The position numbers and the translations under genes are program-made. A DNA stretch of 64,000 nt from a virus (Duplodnaviria > Heunggongvirae > Uroviricota > Caudoviricetes): the IMG/VR virus record IMGVR_UViG_2541047596_000003; one strand, 5' to 3'. Position 1 is the first letter of the stretch. Each line of letters starts with the position of its first letter. The notes under the pieces are model-generated. The model saw only the letters and a program-made list of their open reading frames with translations. It made no database searches and was not told the DNA's origin. This document shows, piece after piece, positions 38,709 to 64,000 of this stretch.

Positions 38709-38717
38709 GGCGGCAAC

Positions 38718-39125: not shown

Positions 39126-39320
39126 TACGCCATCAACCAAAAATAAAACCTCCTTCCCTTCCCGGGATCTACACCCAACGTACCCATCACCAACGTCGTG
39201 AAGATACCATATATCGCCGTTGTCAGCTTTTACAGTAAGGTCGTTGATCTCATAGTCGTCAAACAATGTAAAAGCGTAAGTTTTGTCAACTACACAAGTC
39301 CCGTACATAACAACCCCCAT
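39123..39320 (-). CDS. hypothetical small protein downstream of M
   Basis: 65 aa, start coupled to the M stop. Confidence 0.4.
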   Translation of the reverse strand: MGVVMYGTCVVDKTYAFTLFDDYEINDLTVKADNGDIWYLHDVGDGYVGCRSREGKEVLFLVDGV

Positions 39321-39673: not shown

Positions 39674-39732
39674 AAAACCCCCACAAGTTACATTTTGTAT
39701 ATATCTTTACGCGCTTCTACGCGAAAAATAAG

Positions 39733-39749
39733 ATCATTGTCACAATGAT
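39733..39749. promoter_or_regulatory. 17-bp perfect palindrome (operator-like)
   Basis: ATCATTGT-C-ACAATGAT upstream of the moron cassette 2 promoter. Confidence 0.3.
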
Positions 39750-39771
39750 TATAGCTAGTTTACAAAATGGC

Positions 39772-39800
39772 TTCACATAGCACGCAACAAGATGTATATA
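39772..39800 (+). promoter_or_regulatory. candidate sigma70 promoter of moron cassette 2
   Basis: TTCACA-17 bp-TATATA preceded by CAAAATGG at 39763-39770. Confidence 0.4.
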
Positions 39801-39840
39801 GAAAGCAAGAAGAAAGTAGTACCAACGAAGGAGGCCCAAA

Positions 39841-39996
39841 ATGAAACGCTATGTAGTAGTAATGCTAAATAACGCATTCGAACAAGTGGAAATAGCAATC
39901 GTTAAGGGTTTCGACGACGCATTCAAATACGGTCAATTCATGATGAATGCGAAAGAAGATGAATACCGGGACTTCTTCCTGAAGGCACTTAACTAA
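39841..39996 (+). CDS. hypothetical small protein (51 aa, moron cassette 2)
   Basis: MKRYVVVMLNNAFEQVEIAIVKGFDDAFKYGQFMMNAKEDEYRDFFLKALN with strong SD GAAGGAGG. Confidence 0.4.
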   Translation: MKRYVVVMLNNAFEQVEIAIVKGFDDAFKYGQFMMNAKEDEYRDFFLKALN

Positions 39997-40013
39997 GGAT
40001 GATGGGGTGAGTT

Positions 40014-40268
40014 ATGAAACTGGTAGCGATTGACAGAAATCTGAAAGCACAGAAAAACGCACAGGACCGGATCATCAAGAAAGGTAAGGAATTACTTAAA
40101 GCCTTTCTGAGAAAAGAAGTTTACCCCAAAAAGTTACGCGACGGTTACGGATACAAAATGGATATCAATCTTGATTGGAGGCTGTTTAGCGAAGATTTGA
40201 AGGTTTGGTTAATTGTTGAGCACCATGCCTATAACAAGTTATGTGGCGTGAAAGGCACTCATAAGTGA
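40014..40268 (+). CDS. hypothetical basic protein (84 aa, moron cassette 2)
   Basis: ORF-track ORF with SD GGGGTGAG. Confidence 0.45.
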   Translation: MKLVAIDRNLKAQKNAQDRIIKKGKELLKAFLRKEVYPKKLRDGYGYKMDINLDWRLFSEDLKVWLIVEHHAYNKLCGVKGTHK

Positions 40269-40321
40269 GTCGAGATATTCGAAAGGGGATATATCGCGCG
40301 GAATGGTCGTTTATAAATACG

Positions 40322-40360
40322 AAAAATAACCCCGGCATTGCACCGGGGTTTAGTTTATTT
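40322..40360. terminator. bidirectional rho-independent terminator
   Basis: CCCCGG-CATTGCA-CCGGGG with T-rich tail; overlaps the tape-measure stop. Confidence 0.5.
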
Positions 40361-42697
40361 GCGGCGAGGTTGCAACATTCCGCCTGGTCTTTGAGATTCC
40401 CTTGTTATCATTTTCATGGCTACACGTTCCATTGTTAATTCAAGTCTGCGGCTGTCTTCGTCGCTGAATCCGTTCGTGGTCTGAATGCTGATACTGACAG
40501 GCATACTAATACCGCCACCGCCGCCAATATCACGGCCCGGAATAACTCTGCCGTTCTCGCCAGGGATCATATATTGATTGCCGTTAGATGTCTGGAATAG
40601 CTCCGGCCTGTTGTGTTCCCCTACGCGGTACATATTACCACCAATGACGCTACCACCATTAAAGCGACCGCCGCCGAAAATTGACGTAGCCAGCGACATG
40701 ATCGCAGTGAGCGCCGCCGAACCAGCCGCCGCCCAGCTACCGCCAGTTGACGCCGCAGTTGCCGCCGCTGCTGGGGCCGCCGCCGCAGCAATGCTTCCCT
40801 GAGCTGCTACCGCGCTTGCTGTTGTACTTGTTTGCGTGGCCTTGCTTTGTGTCTCCATCATGATCTGATCTGCTATCCAGTTTGCAGCTATGTCTGAGAG
40901 TCTGTTACCGATATTGCCGAGTATATTGCTTCCTAAGTTAGCAAAAACATCACTCAATGATTGAGTGCCGTTTAACAGGCCAACAAGTGCATTGCTCATA
41001 CCACCTTTAAGGCCATTAACGCAATCACCGATAAGGCTGTTTGTGTCGCTTTGCGCCTGCCATTGCTCCCACTTCAGATCGCGGATCTGTTGCTCATAGG
41101 CTAACAGTTCCTGTTTCTGTTGCGCTTCCGTCACGCCCAGGTCGATAAGCATTTGCTTACGGACGGCCCATTCATTTTGAACCTGCTGAATAGGGTCTAC
41201 TTCGCCCTTTAGCTGATCCATCGGGCTTACTATTTGCTCCCATTTGTCGCGCAATTCCTCTACCGGAATTTGTGCTAATTCTTCCTTTAGTTCCTTACCT
41301 ATCCCTTTTTGCGCGGCGCGGTACTCAAGGAGAGTGATTTTACCCTGGGCGAATGCAGCATCAATGGCCTTGCCGCTCTCTAACGCTTTGCGCATAGCGG
41401 CGGCGTCTTTGTTGTACTGGTCAGAAACGCTTATACCTTTATCGCCAAGACGATCAGCTTCAGATTTCTTCTCTTTTTTCTGTTTTTTCGGTTTGTCTAC
41501 TGGCTTGTCGAATCCGGTAATCGCTCCGTCATTGGCGGCATTCTGTTCATTTTTCCTTGCTTCTTCTGTAGCCTGGATTGCTGCGGTCAGATCATCCTGT
41601 AGTTGCATGACCTTGCCAACGGTCTTACCGTATTTCTTCTCGTAGTTGCTGTTATATTCGTCGGTTTGCTCTCCTACGACCTCCTTCATCCATTTGTAGG
41701 CATCCATTAGTGCCTTGATTGGCGTCACCATTGCGATGATCTTCTCGGCTACCTCGCCAGCCTTGATTCTGACATCTTCAAACATGTCGATGAATTCGCC
41801 ACCAGCCGTCTTCAGGGTGTTAAAGCAGGTTTTAGCGAAATCAGCGCCTTCACCTAAAGCCTTAACACCTTTCGTTACAAGATCGATACCAGCAACAACC
41901 GTATCGGATACACCGAAAAGATCATCCAATTGCTCAATAAGTCCCATAACCTCGACTTTAAGCTCATTCAGGGCCATGCCGGATGTGCGCGGCAACTGCG
42001 CAAACTTCTCGTTTGTTTCCTGCGTAGCCGCCTGGATTGCGTTAACCATCCTTTCTGCCGTGATCTTACCGTCCAGCATTTCGGCGCGGAATTGGCCCAT
42101 TGATAACCCCATCTGGCGTGCCATTGTCTGTACGATGGTCGGGGTGTTTTCTAACAGGCTGTTGAATTCTTCAGCACGCAACACGCCACCGTCGATAGAC
42201 TGACGGAATTGACGCATTGAGTTTGACATCTGCTCCGCTGACGCGCCGCCCAACGCCCCCATTTTCTGAATCGTACCTACCAGGTTAAGCAATTGCCCTT
42301 CAGTGGCGGACGTGTTCTTCAGTGAGATAGCTAAGCCTTGCCACAGATCCCCGGTATCCTTCATGCTTTGGCCTGTTTCTTTTGATATTGCTTTCAGGCC
42401 ATCAAAAACCCGTCCGGCGGACTCCGCATCGCCCGTAAGCATTTTGATTTTTACGCGAAGCATTTTTGCTTGCTCCGCCATATCCATAAATTGACGCACG
42501 GCCTCCGCAGCAATTAGCAAATGGATAACCCTGGTCAGTGCCTTGATGGATGTTTTCAGGGTGTTTACCTGGCGGTCAGCCTGTTTTGCGCCGCGCTCTA
42601 TACGCCCAAAGGCCTGGTCTGCCTGTCGTTGTGCAACGAGAAGTTGACCAGTTTTCGCATCAACTTCGTAATAAATTGTACCTACACTGGTAGCCAT
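40355..42697 (-). CDS. tail length tape measure protein
   Basis: 780 aa, long helical protein with Ala/Gly-rich C-terminus, upstream of M. Confidence 0.85.
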   Translation of the reverse strand: MATSVGTIYYEVDAKTGQLLVAQRQADQAFGRIERGAKQADRQVNTLKTSIKALTRVIHLLIAAEAVRQFMDMAEQAKMLRVKIKMLTGDAESAGRVFDGLKAISKETGQSMKDTGDLWQGLAISLKNTSATEGQLLNLVGTIQKMGALGGASAEQMSNSMRQFRQSIDGGVLRAEEFNSLLENTPTIVQTMARQMGLSMGQFRAEMLDGKITAERMVNAIQAATQETNEKFAQLPRTSGMALNELKVEVMGLIEQLDDLFGVSDTVVAGIDLVTKGVKALGEGADFAKTCFNTLKTAGGEFIDMFEDVRIKAGEVAEKIIAMVTPIKALMDAYKWMKEVVGEQTDEYNSNYEKKYGKTVGKVMQLQDDLTAAIQATEEARKNEQNAANDGAITGFDKPVDKPKKQKKEKKSEADRLGDKGISVSDQYNKDAAAMRKALESGKAIDAAFAQGKITLLEYRAAQKGIGKELKEELAQIPVEELRDKWEQIVSPMDQLKGEVDPIQQVQNEWAVRKQMLIDLGVTEAQQKQELLAYEQQIRDLKWEQWQAQSDTNSLIGDCVNGLKGGMSNALVGLLNGTQSLSDVFANLGSNILGNIGNRLSDIAANWIADQIMMETQSKATQTSTTASAVAAQGSIAAAAAPAAAATAASTGGSWAAAGSAALTAIMSLATSIFGGGRFNGGSVIGGNMYRVGEHNRPELFQTSNGNQYMIPGENGRVIPGRDIGGGGGISMPVSISIQTTNGFSDEDSRRLELTMERVAMKMITRESQRPGGMLQPRRK

Positions 42698-42717
42698 GAT
42701 TTAACCTCATGCAAAAA

Positions 42718-42733
42718 TGTGATCTGTGTATCT
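42718..42733. promoter_or_regulatory. CRP-like half-site element TGTGATCTGTG
   Basis: Same 11-mer as at 30730; centred ~60 bp upstream of the predicted start of the cassette 3 promoter. Confidence 0.3.
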
Positions 42734-42750
42734 ATTTTATACAAAATGGC

Positions 42751-42779
42751 TTTACTTCAACGACTCCATTTTGTATAAA
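42751..42779 (+). promoter_or_regulatory. candidate sigma70 promoter of moron cassette 3
   Basis: TTTACT-17 bp-TATAAA; CAAAATGG at 42742-42749 and inverted copy at 42766-42773. Confidence 0.4.
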
Positions 42780-42824
42780 GAAGCCAAAGGGAATGGTCAG
42801 TAAATCAAGTTAGCGTGGTGGGTT

Positions 42825-43484
42825 ATGAAACGGTTAGCAAAAGTGGCAATGATTGCGGCGGTATTGGGTCTGGTTGGTTGCAATGAGGATAATGAAAAAG
42901 CGCCTATAGTGACCACTCAAGAACAACAAGCATTAGCAGAGAAAAATGCTAAATGGCTTGCAGAACAACAAGCAAAACAAGCCGCATATGAGGCACAGTT
43001 AGCAAAAGAAAAAGCTGGTAAACAGTGGCTTGTGGTCGAAAGAAAAGATGATATGCAGGACACAAAAAACGTGTTCCTTTTCGTGAAAGCAGAACATTTC
43101 AGCGGAAGTCTTGATGCTTTCCCTACACTGAAAGCACGGGATGAAAACAAACCTGTATTAACAATCGCTTGCCAGGGTAATAAAACAAAAATGTTCGTAG
43201 CATGGTCAAACCATGTAACTGACGCTGGGGACACTACTTATATTAACTACCGGATCGGCGATCACAAAGCTGTAGCTACTGAATGGAGTCGGTCAACTAA
43301 CTATAAAGCTCTTGGATTATGGAACGGCAAAAAAGCCATTCCAATGATTAAAAAACTGGTTAACGAAAAACAATTTATCATTGAAGTAGTGCCGGAAGCT
43401 GGCGACATTGAGAAAGCAGTGTTTAACATTGATGGTCTTTATAACCACATCGACAAAGTGAAAAACGCTTGCAACTGGAATTAA
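42825..43484 (+). CDS. lipoprotein (moron cassette 3)
   Basis: 219 aa; signal peptide MKRLAKVAMIAAVLGLVGC with lipobox; coiled-coil-like N-terminal region. Confidence 0.6.
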   Translation: MKRLAKVAMIAAVLGLVGCNEDNEKAPIVTTQEQQALAEKNAKWLAEQQAKQAAYEAQLAKEKAGKQWLVVERKDDMQDTKNVFLFVKAEHFSGSLDAFPTLKARDENKPVLTIACQGNKTKMFVAWSNHVTDAGDTTYINYRIGDHKAVATEWSRSTNYKALGLWNGKKAIPMIKKLVNEKQFIIEVVPEAGDIEKAVFNIDGLYNHIDKVKNACNWN

Positions 43485-43493
43485 GGGTGAAAC

Positions 43494-43814
43494 ATGAAAC
43501 GCGATGAATGGATGAGAAAATGGGAACATAAACAAGTAGCATATAATCGCAAGATGAACCGCGAATTTGACTTCGGTGTCGCAGAGCGTGATTGTGGGTA
43601 TAAAGGAAATCTAAATGGTGCATATGTTCAACATGTTGGCGATAAACAGTATTATTACATTGTCAACTTCAACCATGTATTGCACGCAGATCTGGTTGTT
43701 ATTGATGGGAAAACAAAAATAGTAGCGAATAAACGCATTAATAAGAACGCAGCAATCAATATATTAACAGTGATTCGCACCCAGATGAATGTGCTTTACG
43801 AAAAAATAGCATAA
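43494..43814 (+). CDS. hypothetical protein (moron cassette 3)
   Basis: 106 aa with SD AAGGGTGA, 10 bp after the lipoprotein gene. Confidence 0.5.
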   Translation: MKRDEWMRKWEHKQVAYNRKMNREFDFGVAERDCGYKGNLNGAYVQHVGDKQYYYIVNFNHVLHADLVVIDGKTKIVANKRINKNAAINILTVIRTQMNVLYEKIA

Positions 43815-43831
43815 GCGAACTTAACAAAAAC

Positions 43832-49684: not shown

Positions 49685-50616
49685 TCTTCGCCATATTTAG
49701 CGTGCGCAACTTTATAGTTTTCTTGCGCCCGATCTAATATTCGTTCGTTTAATATGTTACCGTCTTCGTCAACTAATACGGTAATCGTGCTACATTTGCA
49801 GTTAATTGAATTAGGGGATCTACTCCACCATTCGCGCTGCTCATCTATGGTGTATGTTTTACCGTGCCGCTGCGCGTGCGATAGCCTGGTAGTCGGTGAT
49901 AATGCCGAAATGTGCATTTGCATAGTGCGCAGATTAAATTCTTCTGTCGCCGCTTCTGCCTCATCCATACGCGCTGTGCGTAACGCTGTGCATATTTCAG
50001 TTCGAGCAATACGTTTACACCTGTATAGCGGTAATTGCGTCTCCTGATTCAATGTGCGCGCTATTTCCAGTGGGTTTAAACCACGGGCCATGCCTTCAGT
50101 TAATCGCCGGGCCATATCCTTTTTGATCTGTGCGGTCAGCCCGCGCATTTCCTCAAATACACGGGTACGGACCAGAGCAAGGCGTGTTCGGTAAGTTGTA
50201 CTGGATAACACGGCAGATACATCAGGGTAGGCGCTTGAGTACGTGACAGACTGGTTAGCAAGGTTGGCATGTTCCTGTGCCGTGCCGCGCTGATAGGCCA
50301 CCTTCACGTAATTCTGCCAGAACCAGAAGTTTTCCGGGTCTGTTAGCTCGAATATCTCATCAATCATGTCGCTGGCATCCTCCAGCATGTCGTGAAATTC
50401 ATCCATGTAAATCTGAAAGGTGTATTTCTTATTAACAGCCAGGCTATATTGTATCCTGTCCAATATGGCGATATATGGATCGGCTACTTTTTTCAGGCAG
50501 GATTTGAAACGCTTAATAGCGCCAGACCTCAACCTCCCTGTCATGGTCGGGTCTTCGGTGTTAGATGGCATTATCGCGGCTGGAGGTATTCGCCTGATTA
50601 TTTTCTTCACCTTCAT
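49675..50616 (-). CDS. head morphogenesis protein (minor head protein, Mu F / SPP1 gp7-like)
   Basis: 313 aa downstream of the portal gene. Confidence 0.55.
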   Translation of the reverse strand: MKVKKIIRRIPPAAIMPSNTEDPTMTGRLRSGAIKRFKSCLKKVADPYIAILDRIQYSLAVNKKYTFQIYMDEFHDMLEDASDMIDEIFELTDPENFWFWQNYVKVAYQRGTAQEHANLANQSVTYSSAYPDVSAVLSSTTYRTRLALVRTRVFEEMRGLTAQIKKDMARRLTEGMARGLNPLEIARTLNQETQLPLYRCKRIARTEICTALRTARMDEAEAATEEFNLRTMQMHISALSPTTRLSHAQRHGKTYTIDEQREWWSRSPNSINCKCSTITVLVDEDGNILNERILDRAQENYKVAHAKYGEDWE

Positions 50617-51955
50617 TGTCGTTTTCCTCGTCGTCCAGTTCTACTTCCTGCGTTGGCCCTTCATACCCGGCAGCCTCGCGGATCTCGTCACCGTCGAATA
50701 CTTGTTCACCTGTGGCGAGACATGCCTGATTGATTTGCGCCATTTTGTATGCCGCGTCGAGTAGCTCGGCTTTCGTCATGGCGTTAAGGTCGTCCCACAG
50801 TACCGACACGTCGACTGGCATACTGATAAGGCGGAGATCTGCCATCTTGCGGAATAGTTCCTCAAGCTCGCCTCCTATTTCCTCCCGGCGGGTCATACAG
50901 CGGTTATTGAAGTAGCGGAGGTCTTCGGTTGATGCACGCTCACCCTGCTGATTCCCAACCAGGATACGCGTTGGAATGTCGATACCAGCGGCGGCGGTTT
51001 GCAGGTTGACGTCATAGGTAGCTGATGGATCCGCCACGGCAGTAACCAGCGGGCTAACGGTTGCTCCCTGTAATGCCATCATCACATCATTACCTTTATT
51101 TATATCCTCTGCCGCTTCATTGAATTTTTCGCGTAGCTCTGCAACGTCGCAACCGTATGTTGCAGCCAGGGAACGAAAATCAATCTCTTTGTCGAATGAG
51201 ATAGCCAGTTGACGCGCTGCGTTTTTCAGAAAGGATTCACCGCTACCGCCTTCCACTTTCTCCAGCGATACAAAAGCGTTATAGGACGGCTCAAGGAAAG
51301 CGATGGCATCATCAGAATAATCACCGAAGATAAATATGCGATCTGGATGTATCTTTCTTGCTATGGTCTTACTGTTAATGCGCTCCTTGTATTCCCACCA
51401 TGTCGGCAGGCCATAGCTTTCACTTTCCGGATCTTCTTCGAAGTCCTTCGGTGTAAGAGCACCAGCCCATACAGGGGTAAATTTGGCAATGCCTACACCT
51501 TTCGTCACTGGCTGATCCCACGGCTGGTTATCCCTGACGTGAATTAACAGGCCAGCATAACGACCAATGAGGCGGCGGCGATCGCATTCAGCTATGACGC
51601 GCCAGAAACGATTATCAAATCGTTTTTTGATTTCTCTTTCCCACGGCGTTTCCTTTTTTGCTTTCTCGTCTTCCGTACCTTCGATCAGCGTTGGCCTGGT
51701 GCGCCAGCACGTAGTGATGATCTTCTCAATAGCACCGTGAGCGATACCACCGCGACGATACAGTTTGTATAAATCGGCATAGGTGATTTCTTCTTTGAAT
51801 CCGTATTCACTCCACGCAGCATCACGTTTTGCATCAATACCCATTGAGAATGGGTTAGCGGCTGCATAGCGGGCAAAGGCCGCCTGTCGTTGTGACAAGG
51901 CAGCATTAACCGCCAGTTCTACATTAGATGGCATAATGTTTACTCCTGAATACAT
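50561..51955 (-). CDS. portal protein
   Basis: 464 aa downstream of the large terminase, acidic C-terminal tail. Confidence 0.75.
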   Translation of the reverse strand: MYSGVNIMPSNVELAVNAALSQRQAAFARYAAANPFSMGIDAKRDAAWSEYGFKEEITYADLYKLYRRGGIAHGAIEKIITTCWRTRPTLIEGTEDEKAKKETPWEREIKKRFDNRFWRVIAECDRRRLIGRYAGLLIHVRDNQPWDQPVTKGVGIAKFTPVWAGALTPKDFEEDPESESYGLPTWWEYKERINSKTIARKIHPDRIFIFGDYSDDAIAFLEPSYNAFVSLEKVEGGSGESFLKNAARQLAISFDKEIDFRSLAATYGCDVAELREKFNEAAEDINKGNDVMMALQGATVSPLVTAVADPSATYDVNLQTAAAGIDIPTRILVGNQQGERASTEDLRYFNNRCMTRREEIGGELEELFRKMADLRLISMPVDVSVLWDDLNAMTKAELLDAAYKMAQINQACLATGEQVFDGDEIREAAGYEGPTQEVELDDEENDNEGEENNQANTSSRDNAI

Positions 51956-54839: not shown

Positions 54840-55382
54840 TCAGCCTCGTTTAAAACTCATAACACGCGGTACAAGCGCTTCTTTTGCTTTCGGCTTACGT
54901 TTACCTTTCTTCGCTGGCTTTTCTTCTTCCTTCGGCTGTTCTGCCTGTTCCAGCGCCTGATCGACGACTTCTGCCGCCTGCATTGCTGCAACCTGTGCTT
55001 CGTTTGATTCTGCTAGGATAGGGAAAAACGCATCGAAGATACGGCCTACCATGTAAGCGTAAGTCTCATTCGCCGGATGGGTAGGATCCGTGGTAGCCAC
55101 GACGCCTACATCACTTAAAACGTGGAATGTAGTGTGGGCGCATTCATGGACCAGCGTTCCCAACTCATTGTTGAATACTGCGATCACGTAGAAGTTACCA
55201 CCATTCTCGCCAGTGCAAGTAAGCGTTAATCCTCCAGCCAACTCGAAATCAGGTTCAATCGGAATTCCTGCCTTTTCGCAAAATTCATAGAACATCTCGC
55301 GGGTCGGGCAAAAGAAAACGGTTGTATGCTCAAAGAGTGGGATCTTAAATTGAGGCAATTTAATGCCTTTAGCCTTAGCCAT
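54840..55382 (-). CDS. HExxH-motif protein, putative zinc metallopeptidase
   Basis: 180 aa with SD AGGAGA; LVHECAHTTFH motif; Lys-rich C-terminal tail. Confidence 0.5.
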   Translation of the reverse strand: MAKAKGIKLPQFKIPLFEHTTVFFCPTREMFYEFCEKAGIPIEPDFELAGGLTLTCTGENGGNFYVIAVFNNELGTLVHECAHTTFHVLSDVGVVATTDPTHPANETYAYMVGRIFDAFFPILAESNEAQVAAMQAAEVVDQALEQAEQPKEEEKPAKKGKRKPKAKEALVPRVMSFKRG

Positions 55383-55661
55383 CAGAATAATCTCCTATTC
55401 TGAAAAATATAACCCCCGCAAAACTCGACACCGCAGGGAGTGAAAACAGTTATAAAACACTGAAAACGGCGCTTCATCAGTACCGTTTCCAGAATTTTAT
55501 AAAATTGGTGAATGGCGCTTTCTTCTACCCAGGTAGCGCCTGACCTGTTAATGGGACTGTTGATCCGGTATTACGTGTTTTTGACTATTCCGCCGTCGCT
55601 CGCGGGAAGGATTGGCCCGGTTATGGCTGGCTGACAGAAACGGCGACACGTCCACGCGCTG

Positions 55662-56150
55662 CTATTCTTTGCGTAAACACTGAGTTTTGATGTAGTCCTG
55701 TAGGCCAGTGATCTGTGCGTCTTTCTCTTTTAGTTGTTCTCTGAGGGATAGATAAGATTGTCTAGCAGTGGCATCAAGCTCGCAGGTGGCTCCATCAATG
55801 CGGCTGGCGGTCGCGGCGGGGTCGGACACTCGCACGGGTATTGCGTTGACGCGCAACCGGATAGTACCGTTATCAATGCCAGTGCGCAGATCGGCAATGT
55901 CAGATCTGATAGCTTTAATCTCATCGTGATACCTCTTATCAAGTTTTGACAGTTCGGCGTTTCGCTCCTTCATCTGCTGAATAGTGTTACTTGCCGTTTT
56001 CAGTGCGCCTTTCGTTACCGTGACTTCTTCCTGTAACCTTGCCGCCTCACCCTGGTAATAACATGTTACGGCGGTCAGTCCGGCAATAATGCAAACAACA
56101 GCGGCGAAAATTAACGCCTTCACCTTGTCCACGTTTCCCCCCATTCGCAA
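55662..56150 (-). CDS. Rz-like i-spanin
   Basis: 162 aa, N-terminal TM plus coiled coil, contains embedded lipoprotein ORF. Confidence 0.75.
55730..55924 (-). CDS. Rz1-like o-spanin lipoprotein (embedded)
   Basis: ATG 55924; [24 protein letters not shown] lipobox then proline-rich body; ORF track start 55942. Confidence 0.6.
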   Translation of the reverse strand: MRLKLSDLTLPICALALITVLSGCASTQYPCECPTPPRPPAALMEPPASLMPLLDNLIYPSENN

Positions 56151-56611
56151 ACGGCATATTCAACCTCGCGGCGGTTTACCAGGCCTTGCCACTTCTTACC
56201 GCCAGCGTATACCCAGCGTTTAAGCTGTGCGCACGCTTCTGATTTCTTGCCGTCATTGAGTAGTTTTAGTAAGGTTGATGTTTTGAAGTTGGTAGCGCCT
56301 ACGTTATAGGCGAATGAATAAAGTGCTGCGCGGGTAAAATCTGATATTTCGACTTTGATATATGGGTCAATCGCTTTTGCGGTCTTGTGTAGATCTTTAT
56401 TTAACAAAGCATCGCATTCTGATTGCGTGTAAGTCTTACCAAGCATGATGTCTTTTCCGACGTGTCCATAACATATCGTGTAAACACCGATGACATCTCT
56501 GTATGGCTTATACTCAACGCCTTCAAGATCTTTTATCATCACCGCCGCAATAGCGATCGCCCCACCAGCCGCCGCCGCAACAATCTTGTTTTTCAGCGAT
56601 TGGCTAATCAT
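56120..56611 (-). CDS. phage lysozyme / endolysin
   Basis: 163 aa paralogous to the Rac-type endolysin at 4445-4942. Confidence 0.85.
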
Positions 56612-56812
56612 TTACTTATTCCCCATTCGCGCGTCGTGTTCCTCTTGCGCCCGCTTGTTCTCCTGTGATTTGAAGTAATAATTAACGGCAAATGTGCCTA
56701 CGGTTGATAAGATACCAACGAAAACAGCGATGTCATTGATGGTTATCGCGCCGAAAAAAGCAGTTACGGCCCCAGTCACATACGCACACGCCTCCCGTAT
56801 TCTGTCGAACAT
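56612..56812 (-). CDS. holin
   Basis: 66 aa with two hydrophobic helices and charged C-terminus, directly upstream of the endolysin, SD GGAGG. Confidence 0.7.
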   Translation of the reverse strand: MFDRIREACAYVTGAVTAFFGAITINDIAVFVGILSTVGTFAVNYYFKSQENKRAQEEHDARMGNK

Positions 56813-56830
56813 AGATTTTCCTCCAACAAA

Positions 56831-56855
56831 GCAAAAACCCGGCGCGGGGCCGGGT
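56831..56855 (-). terminator. rho-independent terminator just upstream of the holin
   Basis: CCCGGC-GCGGG-GCCGGG followed on the minus transcript by UUUUUGCUUU. Confidence 0.5.
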
Positions 56856-56919
56856 AATTACAATTTCGCATTGTTAGGAAATATTTTAATCTGTTTGTTT
56901 GCGCTCTACAAATACGGCG

Positions 56920-57147
56920 TTAACGATAAGGTCCAAGCAAACGAACAAGCCATTCTTTGTATTTGACGGCAACGTGTTTTGGTGCAAAATATCCTTGCAC
57001 TTCCTTACCGCCTCGCCACTCCCTTCTAAATTCGCACTCGTTTTGATACTCCTTTCCGCTTTTACTATCCAGCCAGCAAGCAGGTGAGTAACCTTTTTCA
57101 CTTCCGAACCGATGCCATATTGATGACAGCAAAACCCTTTCTTCCAT
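56920..57147 (-). CDS. hypothetical small protein upstream of the lysis cassette
   Basis: 75 aa ORF at the position where an antiterminator would be expected; no recognisable Q features. Confidence 0.3.
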   Translation of the reverse strand: MEERVLLSSIWHRFGSEKGYSPACWLDSKSGKEYQNECEFRREWRGGKEVQGYFAPKHVAVKYKEWLVRLLGPYR

Positions 57148-57342
57148 ATTACCCCCAACAAATACGGCTTTACTGCTTTCTGTATATCAGGCCATTATCA
57201 AGCAATGTTTGCATGTGTTCGCGATCCATGCCGCTTGATTCCCAATGTGGATCGTCATCAGGTCTTATCATCACCTTATTACCTTTAAGTAAATAGACGA
57301 TGTTAAATACCTTATGCAAATAGATGCCGTCTTCGATCTCGT

Positions 57343-57525
57343 TCACAGGTCGCTAACCTTCACCACGTCGCCGTTATAAAGCATGATTTCAATTATTTCC
57401 CGCGTCATATCCATGAATGGCTCTTTCCACTCGCCACCATCGATACTGATACGAATATCATTACCCTCCACGCGGTAAAACATTTCATCAATGAGGTTCA
57501 CGGCGTATATACCATCTTCAATCAT
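57343..57525 (-). CDS. hypothetical early-region protein
   Basis: 60 aa, coupled array. Confidence 0.4.
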   Translation of the reverse strand: MIEDGIYAVNLIDEMFYRVEGNDIRISIDGGEWKEPFMDMTREIIEIMLYNGDVVKVSDL

Positions 57526-57750
57526 TTAATCGCCCTCTTTAAACATCCTGAACTTAATATCGCCAATCTTGCTCCAATGTCCGTGATTAAACATCGTGAT
57601 AACTTCTTTCGCTGTCACAGGTAAAACCGTTTCATGCCACGGTTCAAACTGGCGTGATCGCATCATTACGTGTTCACCTTCAAGGCGATAATAAGCGCGT
57701 GACACCAATGACTGATAAACGCCGTCATATTGATGGTCGCTATTTCCCAT
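57526..57750 (-). CDS. hypothetical early-region protein
   Basis: 74 aa, coupled array. Confidence 0.4.
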   Translation of the reverse strand: MGNSDHQYDGVYQSLVSRAYYRLEGEHVMMRSRQFEPWHETVLPVTAKEVITMFNHGHWSKIGDIKFRMFKEGD

Positions 57751-57940
57751 TTTTACGCTCCTTAATGGCTCGCTTAATCTGCACTAGCGTTGCATCGAAG
57801 AAAGCGATAAACACCGCTACAGGCCAGAAAGGAATCTCAAGGCCACCACGATCGAGATCGTTATATTTGATGAAACAAGACATCAGGATAGCGCCAGCGA
57901 TATAAAGGAGAAATACAGCAAAGATAAGACATTCAATCAT
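57740..57940 (-). CDS. small membrane protein (two TM helices)
   Basis: 66 aa, MIECLIFAVFLLYIAGAILMSCF... and PFWPVAVFIAFF... Confidence 0.4.
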   Translation of the reverse strand: MIECLIFAVFLLYIAGAILMSCFIKYNDLDRGGLEIPFWPVAVFIAFFDATLVQIKRAIKERKNGK

Positions 57941-58075
57941 CCTCTTTCTCCCCGCCTAAATGTTGATATATTTTTTCAGCATTTTCCCCGCGCTCAAAAC
58001 AATAATGCTCAAACATGCGCCAGTGTTCACTAAGAAACATAACAATAAACTTGTTTACGTATTCGTCATCCATCG

Positions 58076-58387
58076 TTAATCATCCTCTTCATCGTCTTCT
58101 TGTTCAGCTAGGAAATCATCGACAGAACAGTAAGTAACTGGCGGGATATATTCGAAGTCATCCGTATCAAGATCGAGCGTCCTGCTGTCGCCGTCGTCGT
58201 CAATCGTATTCATTCCTAACTCACCGAAAGGGCCGTACCCAATGTGGCCCAGGTATTCGCAACCAATCGTAAACCCAGGGTATTCGCCTTTACACCGGAT
58301 TTTGTAAGGTTTATTTGATGCGCTCAATTTCCGACCCTCCACTTTCTGCTTCAGTGATTTTGTATTCTGCCGCCAGTTCAGCGCCAA
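58076..58387 (-). CDS. acidic small protein (start uncertain)
   Basis: C-terminal ~45 aa are ~45% Asp/Glu; track start overlaps upstream gene by 77 nt, internal ATG at 58213 possible. Confidence 0.4.
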   Translation of the reverse strand: MALNWRQNTKSLKQKVEGRKLSASNKPYKIRCKGEYPGFTIGCEYLGHIGYGPFGELGMNTIDDDGDSRTLDLDTDDFEYIPPVTYCSVDDFLAEQEDDEEDD

Positions 58388-58634
58388 GCAATTCCACTTC
58401 CATATTAGCGATACCCTGGAACATCAGATAGGCAAAAACTAGGCTTTTAATTCTATCCGGGTCTTCAAGATGGTCTGCATTAAAAGGCGGTTCCGATACG
58501 TGGAAGCATTTAACATGCGCATCGTCTTCAGTGGCTACACGGAAACATGCGCCAGGTTGCCCGGCGAATTCCCCCAATCTTTCTTCGTTCGGTAAAGTAC
58601 CACGGAAAACTTTAACGCTGATAAATTTAGTCAT
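58311..58634 (-). CDS. hypothetical early-region protein
   Basis: 107 aa ORF. Confidence 0.45.
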   Translation of the reverse strand: MTKFISVKVFRGTLPNEERLGEFAGQPGACFRVATEDDAHVKCFHVSEPPFNADHLEDPDRIKSLVFAYLMFQGIANMEVELLGAELAAEYKITEAESGGSEIERIK

Positions 58635-58637
58635 TGT

Positions 58638-58892
58638 TTATTCTCCTTCGTAAAGAGTTGCCACCAGTTCGGCATCTGTTAGCGTGTTATAATCTGTATA
58701 AAACCCGCAACGCATAAGTGAAGAAAGGCCAGCCACTTTGCACCACATAGGGGTCGATTCGCTCAAATATTCATTCTCCCTTTTTTCGCTGTATTCCAGT
58801 TCATAAAACCGACTATTGTTAACACTCTCAATTACACGGCTGTATGTGCCATCAAGCCTACTAACTCCGCGCCATAGTCTGATCACAACCAT
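58638..58892 (-). CDS. hypothetical early-region protein
   Basis: 84 aa ORF. Confidence 0.4.
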   Translation of the reverse strand: MVVIRLWRGVSRLDGTYSRVIESVNNSRFYELEYSEKRENEYLSESTPMWCKVAGLSSLMRCGFYTDYNTLTDAELVATLYEGE

Positions 58893-58931
58893 AATTTCTA
58901 CTCCGTTTGATGGGGCTATTCGGCCCCGTGT

Positions 58932-59072
58932 TTATTCTTCTTCTCCTCCTCTAAATCCTAAGCACTCCGCGTATTCGTCAATGCTTAATGCTTCTTCACC
59001 TGGTGCCAATACTTCAAAGTAGCGGGCGTATAGTTCGAAAACCCAGGCCGGATATTTAGCGTTAGCGTTCAT
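58932..59072 (-). CDS. hypothetical small protein (46 aa)
   Basis: Hand-translated MNANAKYPAWVFELYARYFEVLAPGEEALSIDEYAECLGFRGGEEE with SD AAGGGGG; below track cutoff. Confidence 0.3.
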   Translation of the reverse strand: MNANAKYPAWVFELYARYFEVLAPGEEALSIDEYAECLGFRGGEEE

Positions 59073-59081
59073 GGTTCCCCC

Positions 59082-59360
59082 TTATGCCATGCGTGCAAAT
59101 TCAAGTGATTTGCATTCGTAGTCTTCCTCTGCCTGTTCGATGACTGCCATCATCATTTCGTTTGCGTTGTTGAATGCGTTGCTTTGTGCGAACTTGTCGG
59201 CTCCACCTTCTTCTTCGAACTCCGCGTTGTTTGCTGCAATGTAGTGATATTCGATGTTGTTCAGGTAAGGGCTTGCAGCGTGTGCTGGGTCTTCTTTCTC
59301 CACCATCTCCCAAAATGCGTTTAAGCGAGATTCGACTTCTTTGTTAATCCAGCGTTTCAT
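59082..59360 (-). CDS. hypothetical early-region protein
   Basis: 92 aa ORF. Confidence 0.45.
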   Translation of the reverse strand: MKRWINKEVESRLNAFWEMVEKEDPAHAASPYLNNIEYHYIAANNAEFEEEGGADKFAQSNAFNNANEMMMAVIEQAEEDYECKSLEFARMA

Positions 59361-59441
59361 TTTTCTACCCTCCGCATCGTTCTCTCTTCAGCTTCTTTAT
59401 AACAAAATGGCACTTCCGAAACAATGCCATTTCGTAAACCT

Positions 59442-59457
59442 TGTGATACAGATCACA
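59442..59457. promoter_or_regulatory. perfect CRP-type palindrome TGTGATACAGATCACA
   Basis: TGTGA-N6-TCACA in the 98-bp gap between early genes; adjacent AAATGGCA/TGCCATTT inverted repeat at 59404-59433. Confidence 0.4.
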
Positions 59458-59458
59458 T

Positions 59459-59683
59459 TTACGTTTCTTCCGTAAAAGTAACCTTCATCGCCCCATCCGA
59501 ACTACGGACAACATAACGACCAATACCGCCTAGCGGCCCTGCATACCATAAGTGACCGTAAGTGTCAGTCACGACGATAAACGGAAATTTAGGAGACAAT
59601 CCCATCGGTTTTTCAGCCGTATACTGTGCGCCTTCTTCAAAACAGCCTAATTTCGATTCGTTACACGTTAAAATCATTTTCAT
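59459..59683 (-). CDS. small early protein, paralogue family member D
   Basis: 74 aa; shares F-E-E-G..Y...TD...W motif with the three upstream ORFs. Confidence 0.45.
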   Translation of the reverse strand: MKMILTCNESKLGCFEEGAQYTAEKPMGLSPKFPFIVVTDTYGHLWYAGPLGGIGRYVVRSSDGAMKVTFTEET

Positions 59684-59919
59684 ACCCCTACATACGAAAA
59701 CGCAGCAAAAGCACCACCACCAGCACGCGCATAAACAAGTGCCGTGCCATACCCCATCTTATAAAATCGCCATAACTGACCCTGGTCGTCAGTAATGGCA
59801 TGAATATATTCCTGATCCTTTGCGTCAACCAATGCCGCGCCAACCTCGTAGATCTTGCCATTCTTAAAAAACGCGCTGCATCGTGAGTATGTGCACTGGT
59901 ATCTATGTTTCCGATTCAT
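59680..59919 (-). CDS. small early protein, paralogue family member C
   Basis: 79 aa ...FFKNGKIYEVG...ITDDQGQLWRFY... Confidence 0.45.
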   Translation of the reverse strand: MNRKHRYQCTYSRCSAFFKNGKIYEVGAALVDAKDQEYIHAITDDQGQLWRFYKMGYGTALVYARAGGGAFAAFSYVGV

Positions 59920-59929
59920 AGCACCTCAC

Positions 59930-60187
59930 TTATTCCGGTTTACTGCCTTCGCGGGCGCAAAACTCCGCGATCTCACGGAAATCATGCACTATGCGATAAA
60001 TATACAAACCAGCGGCGTTATTGATATAGCTAACATAAGCGAAATAAACTTTATCATCATCGCCAGTTATCGCCATTGCACCATCACCGCCCGGTGCGCC
60101 GTGAAGTTGAACGCCGCAATAGATCTTCCCTTCTTCAAATATATTGCGGTCGCGCGTCTGTATTAGCTCAAAATATAAATGTTTCAT
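59930..60187 (-). CDS. small early protein, paralogue family member B
   Basis: 85 aa ...FEEGKIYCGV...ITGDDDKVYFAY... Confidence 0.45.
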   Translation of the reverse strand: MKHLYFELIQTRDRNIFEEGKIYCGVQLHGAPGGDGAMAITGDDDKVYFAYVSYINNAAGLYIYRIVHDFREIAEFCAREGSKPE

Positions 60188-60196
60188 GCTTAACCC

Positions 60197-60412
60197 TCAC
60201 CACTTAACAAAACGCGCCATTACGCGATTATCAAAACTACCCTTAACAACCCCTTTCGCATGATCGCCGTAAAATTGCCACGCATCGCCGTCATTATCTT
60301 TTACATAATGAATACCGCCCGCGCCGCGCTTGCACCCGTTAAGAAGGTCAACGCTATATAATTCCCCAACAGTAAAGCACACAGTGTCAGAATAAACGCA
60401 CCTTGCAAACAT
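60197..60412 (-). CDS. small early protein, paralogue family member A
   Basis: 71 aa ...FTVGELYSVD...VKDNDGDAWQFY... Confidence 0.45.
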   Translation of the reverse strand: MFARCVYSDTVCFTVGELYSVDLLNGCKRGAGGIHYVKDNDGDAWQFYGDHAKGVVKGSFDNRVMARFVKW

Positions 60413-60414
60413 AA

Positions 60415-60666
60415 TCAGAAAACCCCTTTATAATCGACCGTGTATTTTACCACCAATTTCCACTCGCTATAGTTTTCCATGTCGCGCGGCTGCCAGCCTT
60501 TCATGCCTACAGCACTACGCGCAGCGTGGCGGCGATAATCGTCATTAAGATCGGCAATGCACCACGGTTGAAGGAAGAACATATAATTCGCTTCGTTAAC
60601 CAGAATAGCCATCATCCGTCCAGTGGCCTTATCTTTCGCCCTGAAATAACTTACCTTGATTTTCAT
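60415..60666 (-). CDS. hypothetical early-region protein
   Basis: 83 aa ORF. Confidence 0.4.
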   Translation of the reverse strand: MKIKVSYFRAKDKATGRMMAILVNEANYMFFLQPWCIADLNDDYRRHAARSAVGMKGWQPRDMENYSEWKLVVKYTVDYKGVF

Positions 60667-60878
60667 TTTAATACCTCGTCGATCAGCATTTCTTCTTCCA
60701 GGTTAGCCGGACGTTTACGGAATATCCCGGCAAAAACCAGGTCATCAAGTAGGTCTTTGCGTTTAAATAGCCACTCTTTCATTATTACCCCGTCATCGCT
60801 GCGATATACGACGCCGTTTTTCAAAAAATAAAAAGTGCGGGTATTTGTTTGAAGGTATAAATCTTCGTAGACGTCCAT
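60663..60878 (-). CDS. hypothetical early-region protein
   Basis: 71 aa ORF, ATGA coupling. Confidence 0.4.
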   Translation of the reverse strand: MDVYEDLYLQTNTRTFYFLKNGVVYRSDDGVIMKEWLFKRKDLLDDLVFAGIFRKRPANLEEEMLIDEVLK

Positions 60879-60882
60879 GATA

Positions 60883-61110
60883 TTAACCCTCGACTACTTG
60901 CAAGCCGCGCCCCTTATCGCCTACGAAGTCGCCCAGGCTAAACGTATATGACCACGCCGGGTTAATGTAGTAATCATCAGCACCGTGAGCGATAAGGTCT
61001 TTACCCAAAATGACGCAGGTCACATCATCAGAATGAACAACGTCTACCGTTTCCCCTACCACGCGTTTTAATGATGGGTAGCCGTGATCGTGCAAGAATT
61101 TAACTTTCAT
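60883..61110 (-). CDS. hypothetical early-region protein
   Basis: 75 aa ORF. Confidence 0.4.
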   Translation of the reverse strand: MKVKFLHDHGYPSLKRVVGETVDVVHSDDVTCVILGKDLIAHGADDYYINPAWSYTFSLGDFVGDKGRGLQVVEG

Positions 61111-61394
61111 ATTTCTTTCCCTTTATAAGTAACAGCATCAGCGATCAACAATACCGCCAGCAATTCACCGTCATGTAACGGGTCTGGAATAGCAAAAAAT
61201 ATGTCGCTGTTTTTGTCCGGCACTACTACGCGCATATTTCCCTGTTTGTCTTCATGCACGAACCACGGCTTTTCGTGTGGCTCAAACATGCCGAAAAGTA
61301 ATTTAAGATCTATTTCTTCACCCTTCGTGAATAACGACACATCAGTTGTAGTGATAACTAACGCTTTCTGATCTGCTGTTTTCTTCGCTCTCAT
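61107..61394 (-). CDS. hypothetical early-region protein
   Basis: 95 aa ORF, ATGA coupling. Confidence 0.4.
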   Translation of the reverse strand: MRAKKTADQKALVITTTDVSLFTKGEEIDLKLLFGMFEPHEKPWFVHEDKQGNMRVVVPDKNSDIFFAIPDPLHDGELLAVLLIADAVTYKGKEI

Positions 61395-61624
61395 TCCTCT
61401 GTCTCCCAGCGGTCTATGCTGATTAAAAAGTCCCGGATAGCGTGTCGCTCGTCGCGCGTCGGTTTACGCTTCCGGTAAATTTTGAAATCGAACCATTCTT
61501 TTTCTTGTTCGAAGTCCAGATCGTAAGCAAGCGCCTCGATATATCCGCAGTCGTGATACTGGTAAGCCACGCCAGCACGAACAAAAAAGCGGGTTTTATC
61601 CCGCTTGTGTTCATAGATACGCAT
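61391..61624 (-). CDS. hypothetical early-region protein
   Basis: 77 aa ORF. Confidence 0.4.
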   Translation of the reverse strand: MRIYEHKRDKTRFFVRAGVAYQYHDCGYIEALAYDLDFEQEKEWFDFKIYRKRKPTRDERHAIRDFLISIDRWETEE

Positions 61625-61634
61625 ATTTGCCCCA

Positions 61635-61865
61635 CTATGCAGTCGTGTAACTATCTACCAGCTTTTCATCCTTCATTCTGGCAAGCTGGGAGATATTCAT
61701 CGTGTAGCCTTCATCAGAGAAAAGCCACTCCGCAGCCTTGCGACGAAAAGCTATATCATCATGGTTGCGCGTCCATGTAGCGATCACCACGCGCTTTCCA
61801 TCAGTGGCAAACATGGTTAATTCGTTATCAACAACGTCGATAGCCTGCCAGATTTTTAGTTCCAT
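61635..61865 (-). CDS. hypothetical early-region protein
   Basis: 76 aa ORF. Confidence 0.4.
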   Translation of the reverse strand: MELKIWQAIDVVDNELTMFATDGKRVVIATWTRNHDDIAFRRKAAEWLFSDEGYTMNISQLARMKDEKLVDSYTTA

Positions 61866-62221
61866 GATTTATCACCGTAGATCTTGAATAGTTCACACGC
61901 TTTCTGATCTTCAAATATATTCATATGCAGGTCACGCAGACGGCGCATTGTTCGGAATCGCGGTCTAAACTCCTGGCTCCGTTTAATGTATTTGCCGCCA
62001 ATTGAATAAATATGCCCGTATGAATACCATCTATTCCCTACCCATATTTCATATTCTTTGCCTTCGTAATTGAATTTTATCGTTAGCTCGTCCACTTCAA
62101 CTATTAACCCTTTATCAATGATGCCATTAAGCATTTCGTCCCATTCTTTCAGGAATGGATGCTGATAAAAACCGAAAAGCGTATTTGCAGCGTGGCAAAG
62201 GTAATCAATGATTATTTGCAT
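61856..62221 (-). CDS. hypothetical early-region protein
   Basis: 121 aa ORF. Confidence 0.45.
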   Translation of the reverse strand: MQIIIDYLCHAANTLFGFYQHPFLKEWDEMLNGIIDKGLIVEVDELTIKFNYEGKEYEIWVGNRWYSYGHIYSIGGKYIKRSQEFRPRFRTMRRLRDLHMNIFEDQKACELFKIYGDKSWN

Positions 62222-62441
62222 ATTCCCACCTTCTCAATATGTAGTAAATGTTATCGTAAGCTATATTATCCGCATCTTCCTGTGTTATATGTCTGGCATC
62301 AAAAAAGAAATCAGCGTCGTGCCATACATGAAAAAGAAGTCGCGCGAATTGTCTGCGGCGGCGCTTACTGCGTGATAGTTCGTTAAATTCTATTAACGCT
62401 TTATCATATGCTCTTATCATGCGCTTACGGTTACTTTTCAT
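62205..62441 (-). CDS. small basic early protein, tandem paralogue 2
   Basis: 78 aa MKSNRKRMIRAYDKALIEFNEL..., paralogous to 62446-62646. Confidence 0.45.
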   Translation of the reverse strand: MKSNRKRMIRAYDKALIEFNELSRSKRRRRQFARLLFHVWHDADFFFDARHITQEDADNIAYDNIYYILRRWEYANNH

Positions 62442-62445
62442 ATTG

Positions 62446-62646
62446 TCACCACATCATATAGTAAACGTTATCATCTGCTAATTCGTCTGCGTCTCTTTGG
62501 CAGTCGATTGTCGCATCATCTTCGTGCCATTCTTTAGCAAATAAACGCGCCCATTTACGACGCTCACGTTTATTGTGCCGCAGGTCACTAAAAACCATTA
62601 AAGCCTTGTCGTAAGCTCTTACCAGGCGTTTCATTCTACTTTTCAT
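62446..62646 (-). CDS. small basic early protein, tandem paralogue 1
   Basis: 66 aa MKSRMKRLVRAYDKALMVFSDL... Confidence 0.45.
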   Translation of the reverse strand: MKSRMKRLVRAYDKALMVFSDLRHNKRERRKWARLFAKEWHEDDATIDCQRDADELADDNVYYMMW

Positions 62647-62852
62647 TTTTCACCCTTCCTTAATTCCTTAATTTCAATATTGCGTAACCGGACGTCGCAC
62701 GGCGTTTCAGATTTACCAGTAAGCGCCAGCGTCAGGTTTTCAGGTGTCGTGTAAAGAATTATCTCTTTACCAGTGCTAAATTTAATTTCTATGCGGATCT
62801 CGTTTTCATCACCGCACAATACGCGGCTAATTGACAGGCCAGCTTTTTTCAT
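62643..62852 (-). CDS. hypothetical early-region protein
   Basis: 69 aa ORF. Confidence 0.4.
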   Translation of the reverse strand: MKKAGLSISRVLCGDENEIRIEIKFSTGKEIILYTTPENLTLALTGKSETPCDVRLRNIEIKELRKGEK

Positions 62853-62865
62853 TGCTCAACAAACC

Positions 62866-63165
62866 TTAAAATCTGTATTGCCAGTAAATATCACACTTTA
62901 TTGCAAATACCTTCACCGGATCAGGGCCGAATAGTGGATGTTGAATCAACTTGATTTCGTACCCCATGTAAGGCAATACGATAATCCGGTCTTTCTCATC
63001 ATCCGATGGATAACCCCATTTAATGATTAATCTTGTGTACTCCCGCCCCTCCAGGCGTTTACGCCAGTATTCATTGTAAAGCCGGTATTCTTCCACCTTC
63101 TTTCCCGCCCGGATGGCGTGGAAGTATTCACCTTTTAAATTCAAATGTAAGTGTTTATTTGCCAT
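62866..63165 (-). CDS. possible ASCH/DUF3850-like protein
   Basis: 99 aa; ...LKGEYFHAIRAGKKVEEYRL... resembles the ASCH-like N-terminal motif; weak. Confidence 0.35.
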   Translation of the reverse strand: MANKHLHLNLKGEYFHAIRAGKKVEEYRLYNEYWRKRLEGREYTRLIIKWGYPSDDEKDRIIVLPYMGYEIKLIQHPLFGPDPVKVFAIKCDIYWQYRF

Positions 63166-63424
63166 CGCTATGATCCTGTAAACAGTCGTTATAGCCTTCG
63201 ATGTATCCGGTTAATCCTGTGTTACTTACTGACCAATCAGCCGAACGGCGCTTGATGGCCTTGTCCATAGTCATCTCGTCACCTGGCCCGCCTGGCTCGA
63301 TGTATTTTCTTAAATCCCTTACTATCCACGCCCTTAATTGTTGCGTATCACTGCACACACGCGCCGTTAATGTCAGATTATTAACCAGCTTTGCGAATAG
63401 ATGTTCTTTTAATTTAGGCTTCAT
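63155..63424 (-). CDS. hypothetical early-region protein
   Basis: 89 aa ORF. Confidence 0.4.
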   Translation of the reverse strand: MKPKLKEHLFAKLVNNLTLTARVCSDTQQLRAWIVRDLRKYIEPGGPGDEMTMDKAIKRRSADWSVSNTGLTGYIEGYNDCLQDHSDGK

Positions 63425-63614
63425 CCTTCACCTCGCGACGATAGATTTCTACTGGCTTAACCGGAATAGCGTTAAAATCCCCTTCATCCAGTGCGGCAAT
63501 AAACGTTAGCGCCAACCGTGCTTCAACACCGCTTAAATACTTGCACCATGCCTCACCGTTATAATCTTCAAAAAGAATAATCACTTTTTTCATGTTTATC
63601 TCTTGTTGTTTCAT
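63414..63614 (-). CDS. hypothetical early-region protein
   Basis: 66 aa ORF. Confidence 0.4.
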   Translation of the reverse strand: MKQQEINMKKVIILFEDYNGEAWCKYLSGVEARLALTFIAALDEGDFNAIPVKPVEIYRREVKDEA

Positions 63615-64000
63615 TATTCACCCCGTGTCACTCGTTTAATTTCGTTATCAGCCCGCGCCTCTTCTTTGAACAATTCAGTAATGGCGTCTTCATAGAAAGC
63701 ACGGTATTTCTTCCACCACGTTGATCGGCTTACCGGAAATACAAGCTGATTAACCGCACGCCGGACAAGATCTACAGGGAAACGCGAGTACCCGCGCCCG
63801 CCGCAGTGCTGGCACGTTTTGAATACTGGCATTTCCGCCGCTTCGCTGGCTGCTTTATCCGGTACTTCGCCACGCCCCTTGCACCTCTGGCAATGGTTTT
63901 TAACGTAGCCTTTGCCGTTGCACCGCGAGCAAACTGTCGATGTGTATTCACAATATGGATTCGGTAAAAGCCCGTTACCTCCGCACTTAGGGCAAACCTT
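63614..64000 (-). CDS. DnaJ-type zinc-finger (CxxCxGxG x4) protein, 5' end outside window
   Basis: Frame is open from the window edge down through the track ORF 63614-63832; four motifs CPKCGGNG, CSRCNGKG, CQRCKGRG, CQHCGGRG. Confidence 0.55.
   Translation of the reverse strand, partial: KVCPKCGGNGLLPNPYCEYTSTVCSRCNGKGYVKNHCQRCKGRGEVPDKAASEAAEMPVFKTCQHCGGRGYSRFPVDLVRRAVNQLVFPVSRSTWWKKYRAFYEDAITELFKEEARADNEIKRVTRGE

Follow-up and report, generated by a model that had tools for sequence, protein, structure and literature searches.

Very likely identity of a truncated cysteine-rich frame in an mEp021-type Escherichia coli prophage as a Q-lambda-family antiterminator gene with four zinc-knuckle motifs

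The window analysed here, 64,000 nucleotides of the virus record IMGVR_UViG_2541047596_000003 (Caudoviricetes), ends at its right-hand edge inside a minus-strand frame that stays open for 128 codons, from position 64000 to the stop codon at 63614-63616. Its translation, which starts KVCPKCGGNGLLPNPYCEYTSTVCSRCNGKGYVKNHCQRCKGRGEVPDKAASEAAEMPVFKTCQHCGGRGYSRF..., holds exactly the four CxxCxGxG-type motifs that a preliminary description of this DNA had read in one open frame:

63971-63994, minus strand: motif 1, CPKCGGNG
63908-63931, minus strand: motif 2, CSRCNGKG
63869-63892, minus strand: motif 3, CQRCKGRG
63791-63814, minus strand: motif 4, CQHCGGRG

The open reading frame (ORF) listed by program at 63614-63832 is no more than what follows a Met inside the frame, at residue 171 of the complete protein. 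The pattern C..C.G.G is matched five times in the six frames of the window, four of them in this frame within 204 nt, the fifth having a stop codon inside; shuffled windows yield 0.3 matches on average, so that the clustering goes far past what chance would give.

Completion of the frame upstream, as proposed in the preliminary description, was made possible by a near-identical chromosome. The chromosome of E. coli M1/5 shows 100% identity to positions 63000-64000, 99.97% to positions 55000-64000 and 99.7% to positions 23961-56000, and no counterpart of positions 1-23960 was found in the M1/5 segments compared. The frame is not interrupted in M1/5 and runs 114 codons further upstream to an ATG, giving a protein of 242 amino acids (WP_001703271.1, RefSeq name 'antitermination protein'). 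Residues 1-114 were taken from this record of another strain, which carries practically the same prophage, and by the same identity the gene start would fall at window coordinate 64342, past the window edge.

The completed protein matches the Pfam family Antiterm (PF03589, positions 3-87 of 87) with 112 bits, and the part encoded in the window does so alone with 77.7 bits, against a cutoff of 26.7; it also matches PHROG 127, 'anti-termination protein Q-like', end to end with 270 bits. PF03589 is the Q-lambda family, distinct from Q21 (PF06530) and Q82 (PF06323) (Yin et al. 2022, PMC9388147), neither of which was matched in a Pfam scan of the protein at E-values up to 1. Among PDB entries the protein matches phage lambda Q best by sequence (7UBM_Q, E 6.7e-39), and it is collinear with lambda Q over its full length, residues 1-114 aligning by HMMER to lambda Q 1-114 and residues 150-240 to lambda 117-207, with residues 115-149 unmatched. 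The two share a fold composed of an N-terminal torus segment, a helical body with a helix-turn-helix (HTH) and a zinc-ribbon arm. According to the annotation of M1/5, mEp021 and MagusPhagus, the gene follows nin/rusA and precedes the lysis and structural genes, all of them sharing one orientation. We consider it very likely that the frame is the 3' half of a late-gene antiterminator gene of the Q-lambda family (PF03589), from an E. coli prophage of the mEp021 (mEpimmI) type. As such it is a gene of a known kind, an ordinary lambda-type Q that is already annotated, and the view that it is an early phage gene agrees with its place as a prophage gene of the early rightward operon. The window part of the gene divides as follows:

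63614..64000, minus strand: Q antiterminator gene, 3' 387 nt, residues 115-242 and stop codon (profile matches)
63893..64000, minus strand: presumed extra zinc ribbon, residues 115-150, with motif 1, short beta-hairpin, motif 2 and a 5-residue linker
63788..63892, minus strand: lambda-equivalent zinc-ribbon arm, residues 151-185, with motif 3, strand-helix-strand and motif 4
63617..63787, minus strand: C-terminal half of the Q body with the HTH, residues 186-242, aligning to lambda Q 153-207

In lambda Q, two CxxCxGxG motifs (C118/C121 and C144/C147) share a single zinc, forming a 'type I shuffled zinc ribbon'; this ribbon is the Q-lambda arm (lambda residues 114-152), which touches positions 11-13 of the Q binding element (QBE), sigma region 4 and the beta' zinc-binding domain (PMC9388147). 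These cysteines are aligned with C151, C154, C177 and C180 of the present protein, which are spaced alike and do not vary across 44 homologs. The spacings from motif 1 to 2, 2 to 3 and 3 to 4 are 21, 13 and 26 residues, the last being equal to that of lambda, and motifs 1 and 2 sit in a 35-residue insert right after residue 114 that is absent from lambda Q. Secondary structure was taken from an AF2 model of a homolog (P0001) which is 96% identical and has all four motifs identical. Strands are predicted between motifs 1 and 2, forming a short beta-hairpin, and a strand-helix-strand between motifs 3 and 4, in agreement with B1-H3-B2 of lambda; helices are predicted at residues 190-200 and 206-239 (191-201 and 207-240 in P0001), in the body whose HTH was assigned in lambda Q (PMC9388147). 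From spacing, homology and the predicted secondary structure we infer two tandem ribbons (motifs 1+2 and 3+4) and not the nested layout of DnaJ, motifs 1 and 2 most likely forming a separate small ribbon at the join of arm and body that binds a second zinc.

A mechanism for this protein can be modelled on that of lambda Q (PMC9388147). By this homology Q would be made from the early rightward operon, its HTH body and zinc-ribbon arm would bind the QBE in the late promoter, and it would engage RNA polymerase during a promoter-proximal pause that depends on sigma. The conserved N-terminal 44 residues, together with NusA, would then fold into a ring (torus) narrowing the RNA exit channel, after which terminator hairpins would be blocked and the polymerase would read through into the lysis and structural genes. 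The N-terminal segment is conserved (MNLESILKFHFPKSP...GMAQS here, MRLESVAKFHSPKSP...GMAQS in lambda). Among the lambda residues whose substitution causes antitermination defects (listed in PMC9388147), G39, L58 and T206 (T239 here) are kept, and two are conservatively replaced (V6I and L202I). We infer antitermination activity of the present protein from its homology with lambda Q.

The prophage is of the mEp021 type (mEpimmI; PMC11893012) and looks complete. On one strand ninG, rusA, one small ORF and Q are followed by about 25 small ORFs and then, in this order, by the genes for holin, lysozyme, Rz, terminase, portal, capsid and tail, those from lysozyme on continuing along the minus strand to ~28.6 kb. 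The small ORFs between Q and the lysis cassette (56920-63614, minus strand) are of unknown function and mosaic among relatives. The elements around the start of the lysis cassette are:

56870..56911, minus strand: candidate pR'-type promoter, with -35 TTGTAG (56911-56906), -10 TAAAAT (56888-56883) and pause element AACAAT (56875-56870)
56832..56855, minus strand: intrinsic terminator between the candidate promoter and the holin gene, hairpin ACCCGGCCCCGCGCCGGGT at 56855-56837 followed by a T-run (terminator scan)
56612..56812, minus strand: holin gene, first of the lysis/late operon (RefSeq annotation of the near-identical M1/5 prophage)

The layout of the candidate promoter, TTGTAG-17 nt-TAAAAT-7 nt-AACAAT GCG followed after ~14 nt by the strong terminator, matches that of lambda pR' (TAAATT-6 nt-AACGAT GGG) and of the annotated phi80 pR' (TAGATT-7 nt-AACGCT GGG, then a terminator). 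Five mEp021-type loci have an almost unchanged sequence from ~56900 up to the holin ATG, and of the non-coding DNA between Q and holin only the ~90-110 bp before the holin gene are conserved throughout the relatives examined. TERM_5 of the mEp021 record has an identical hairpin; assuming the same numbering, this is the terminator t5, which the mEpimmI paper (PMC11893012) lists as demonstrated by experiment. We therefore propose the block before the holin gene as a candidate pR'-type late promoter, and the terminator at 56855-56837 as probably the first one to be read through by Q-modified RNA polymerase.

Several points weigh against this interpretation as a whole. Because of the interval of small ORFs, the candidate promoter lies 6.7 kb from Q, whereas pR' adjoins Q in lambda and phi80. 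The -35 is weak, and two subgroups of relatives have different versions of it; since it matches the consensus at only 3 of 6 positions, the site was not flagged by a sigma-70 promoter scan. No QBE was recognised in the block. The degenerate -10/spacer/AACnnT pattern is not rare either, with 16 matches in the window against ~24 in shuffles, so that the promoter assignment rests on context and conservation. The cysteine pairing was deduced from spacing, homology and predicted secondary structure, the N-terminal 114 residues belong to the near-identical record outside the window, and a literature search found no experiment on this Q protein or on any four-motif Q.

A possible likeness in the DNA around the promoters was also noted. 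In the phi80 record (1690-1799) a Q-binding site, TCGCGGA, is annotated between the -35 and -10 of pR'; upstream of the candidate -10, TCGCGCA is present in one subgroup of mEp021-type loci (MagusPhagus and MFDS1019527), and AGCGCA in the other subgroup, which includes the window. The likeness may reflect a shared QBE half-site or coincidence.

The four motifs had originally been taken as a DnaJ-type cysteine-rich domain, perhaps that of a chaperone-mimicking early protein. We give next to no credence to a stand-alone domain of this type that acts as a chaperone mimic, holdase or DnaK-interacting early protein, as the completed ORF is a Q-lambda antiterminator, a different and characterised zinc-ribbon protein, and effectively refutes this reading. 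There is a resemblance to the cysteine-rich domain of DnaJ/Hsp40 (PF00684; PDB 1EXK): CxxCxGxG zinc knuckles are present four times, with a weak local likeness of fold and a marginal profile match. The Pfam model DnaJ_CXXCXGXG (PF00684) just reaches its cutoff (33.0-34.1 bits against 32.7), but over positions 1-52 of 65, which cover only three of the four motifs (2-4). Close homologs score 25-29 bits and the two-motif lambda Q scores 23.1 bits over positions 14-52, all below the cutoff; because even lambda Q matches in this way, the DnaJ likeness is a general property of the Q-lambda arm. It is thus a local property of a zinc-knuckle superfamily and no evidence of chaperone function. The number of repeats is that of DnaJ, but the spacing, 21/13/26 here, is not, nor is the likely pairing, which is nested in DnaJ (1+4, 2+3) and probably tandem here (1+2, 3+4). 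Neither a J domain, whose absence had been noted from the visible part, nor a G/F region nor the DnaJ C-terminal substrate-binding domains were matched by Pfam or NCBIfam in the completed 242-residue protein, the DnaJ equivalog models reach 14-25 bits where their cutoffs are 338-556, and the motifs are embedded in an antiterminator that binds DNA and RNA polymerase. The further suggestion of a nucleic-acid-binding early protein came close, given that the lambda Q arm contacts DNA (PMC9388147). The zinc-ribbon arm looked like an orphan DnaJ domain because the window edge cut the Q gene in half, and CxxCxGxG repeats should not be taken as diagnostic of chaperones. Our literature search returned nothing relevant on DnaJ-like or four-motif Q proteins, nor on QuuQ.

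A different possibility accepts a true Q-lambda homolog and moves its target: Q could load at another late promoter, which might lie inside or just after its own gene, in which case the 25 small ORFs would be late genes and the terminator before the holin would be one of several read through. We regard this as unlikely, if worth weighing, since pR' lies within ~45 bp of the Q stop codon in lambda and phi80, and since the candidate cassette has a poor, non-conserved -35 and a pattern that is not rare. At the present locus, however, the Q stop codon overlaps the start of the next ORF, leaving no intergenic space, and the DNA right downstream of Q is unrelated in mEp021 even though the HTH-bearing C-terminal Q body is 89% identical, which together make an adjacent pR' in the style of lambda unlikely. 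A late promoter beside Q was accordingly rejected, no promoter-like site being found on the minus strand between 63400 and 63900, and it is the block before the holin that is the sole conserved non-coding segment from Q to holin in all relatives examined. It is also conceivable, with a very low probability in our estimate, that the gene product descends from Q and no longer antiterminates, either as a remnant within a defective prophage or turned to the role of a simple DNA-binding regulator. Many Q homologs of E. coli prophages lie in cryptic prophages, which counts in favour of such a loss. The extra ribbon, moreover, stands beside residues whose lambda counterparts contact the beta' zinc-binding domain (PMC9388147), and it could disturb that contact. 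Nevertheless, this prophage looks complete, the closely related plaque-forming phages mEp021, mEp010 and MagusPhagus have the same gene, the N-terminal torus segment and all zinc ligands are conserved, and the viable classical phage phi80 also has a four-motif Q.

Returning to the reading of the gene as a functional Q, the extra ribbon is hypervariable between close relatives. In Q proteins of the mEp021 type, residues 115-150 occur in two alleles that are 39% identical, the remainder of the protein being 89-100% identical, and DNA similarity to mEp021 stops at 63883, inside motif 3. Among the five loci with the promoter block, the ribbon allele did not co-vary with the two sequence versions upstream of the candidate -10. 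Changes in the extra ribbon may just be tolerated, or the ribbon may be an exchangeable module under selection. We put forward only tentatively, and think rather improbable, the idea that in long-form Q-lambda proteins motifs 1 and 2 make up an exchangeable module that is functional, sited where body and arm meet; it is prompted by the residues beside that site in lambda, which touch the beta' zinc-binding domain, and by the reach of the arm to the QBE and sigma region 4. If it were true, the second ribbon could alter the docking of Q on the paused polymerase or on DNA, and its hypervariability, seen in the divergent alleles of otherwise similar proteins and in loops of 19-58 residues across genera, could reflect selection, for instance to evade a factor of the host or of a rival phage directed at Q. 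No structural study of any four-motif Q was found in the literature search.

All 43 aligned full-length homologs, from Escherichia, Serratia, Citrobacter, Salmonella, Enterobacter, Pantoea, Raoultella and Xenorhabdus, have four Cys pairs, with essentially fixed spacings of 13 (motifs 2-3) and 26 (motifs 3-4), except that the spacing moves by one residue where motif 3 has the form CxC, and a motif 1-2 distance that ranges from 19 to 58 residues. A tblastn search over 50,697 phage records found a homolog in 250, and gene length was surveyed in 39 full-length rows drawn at even intervals from the ranked list. Twenty of these were long-form (720-819 bp; for example mEp010, mEp021, phi80 and a gene annotated quuQ in a Stx2a-converting phage), recognised in phages other than phi80 by length and not by motif count, and 19 were of lambda length (621 bp; for example lambda, HK022 and gene 23 of P22). 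Long-form genes thus make up about half of the lambda-type Q genes in this sample of phage records, and every long-form protein checked has a second, variable zinc ribbon, a segment outside the scope of the lambda structures. The domain string PF27659 + PF03589 + PF00684 is already precomputed for nearly all homologs in a large protein collection. The significance of the present identification is mostly one of correct annotation, the residual novelty being the second ribbon of long-form Qs, which is uncharacterised in the literature found; for the loading of Q, this ribbon and the unusual 6.7-kb gap between Q and its probable target in mEp021-type phages pose modest questions.

Three relatives serve for closer comparison. 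Lambda Q (PF03589; PDB 4MO1, 7UBJ-7UBN) has the same N-terminal torus segment, four-helix HTH body, nin-Q-lysis gene order and zinc ribbon with 26-residue Cys spacing and strand-helix-strand insert, at a BLAST-level identity of ~35% across the whole protein. It differs in having 207 amino acids against 242 here, where the insert at residue 114/115 brings two more motifs and a presumed second zinc site; its pR' adjoins Q, whereas the probable target here is 6.7 kb downstream, and its terminator lies ~190 nt past the pause element, as opposed to ~20 nt. The phi80 Q (gp58, 269 amino acids) has motifs at residues 115, 169, 182 (CxC) and 207, with the same 13- and 26-residue spacings, and its annotated pR' likewise shows a -10, 7 nt, AACGCT and then a terminator; its motif 1-2 loop is ~46 residues long against 13 here, its motif 3 is CxC, and identity is only 32-35%. 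The third is gp37 of mEp021, a 'putative late gene regulator Q' (mEpimmI, PMC11893012), 84% identical, from the same phage group with the same gene order and an identical promoter/terminator block before the holin, but with the other extra-ribbon allele (39% identical over residues 115-150) and fewer small ORFs between Q and holin.

Some further features of the window deserve mention. The region of small ORFs contains two tandem paralogous ORFs (62446-62646 and 62205-62441) and, next to the candidate promoter, an unannotated 75-residue ORF (56920-57146, minus strand; no Pfam match) flanked by an 11-bp direct repeat, GCCGTATTTGT, at 57168-57158 and 56918-56908. The 56908-57168 insert is also present in the MLI107 prophage; because mEp021 carries the repeat only once and has no such ORF, it looks like a moron-type insertion. 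The repeat is not enriched across the window (3 matches, a number reached in 20 of 100 shuffles). Positions 1-25179 are the end of a Rac-like prophage, with a TrkH-family transporter (2389-3864) and RecE/exonuclease VIII (18806-21406); an intact integrase gene (22957-24192) adjoins ttcA, where M1/5 has an integrase fragment only, which marks the strain of the window as a different one. The gene at 50561-51934 (minus strand), named 'anti-CBASS protein Acb1 family protein' by PGAP, occupies the portal position and matches Pfam Phage_portal_3 with 64.8 bits (cutoff 33.8), so that the name looks like a mis-annotation or points to a fused or embedded domain. Finally, genes on the opposite, plus strand at ~38190-43815, amid the tail genes and annotated in M1/5 as a KilAC antirepressor fragment, a ParE-like toxin and a TagO-like protein, are probably morons.
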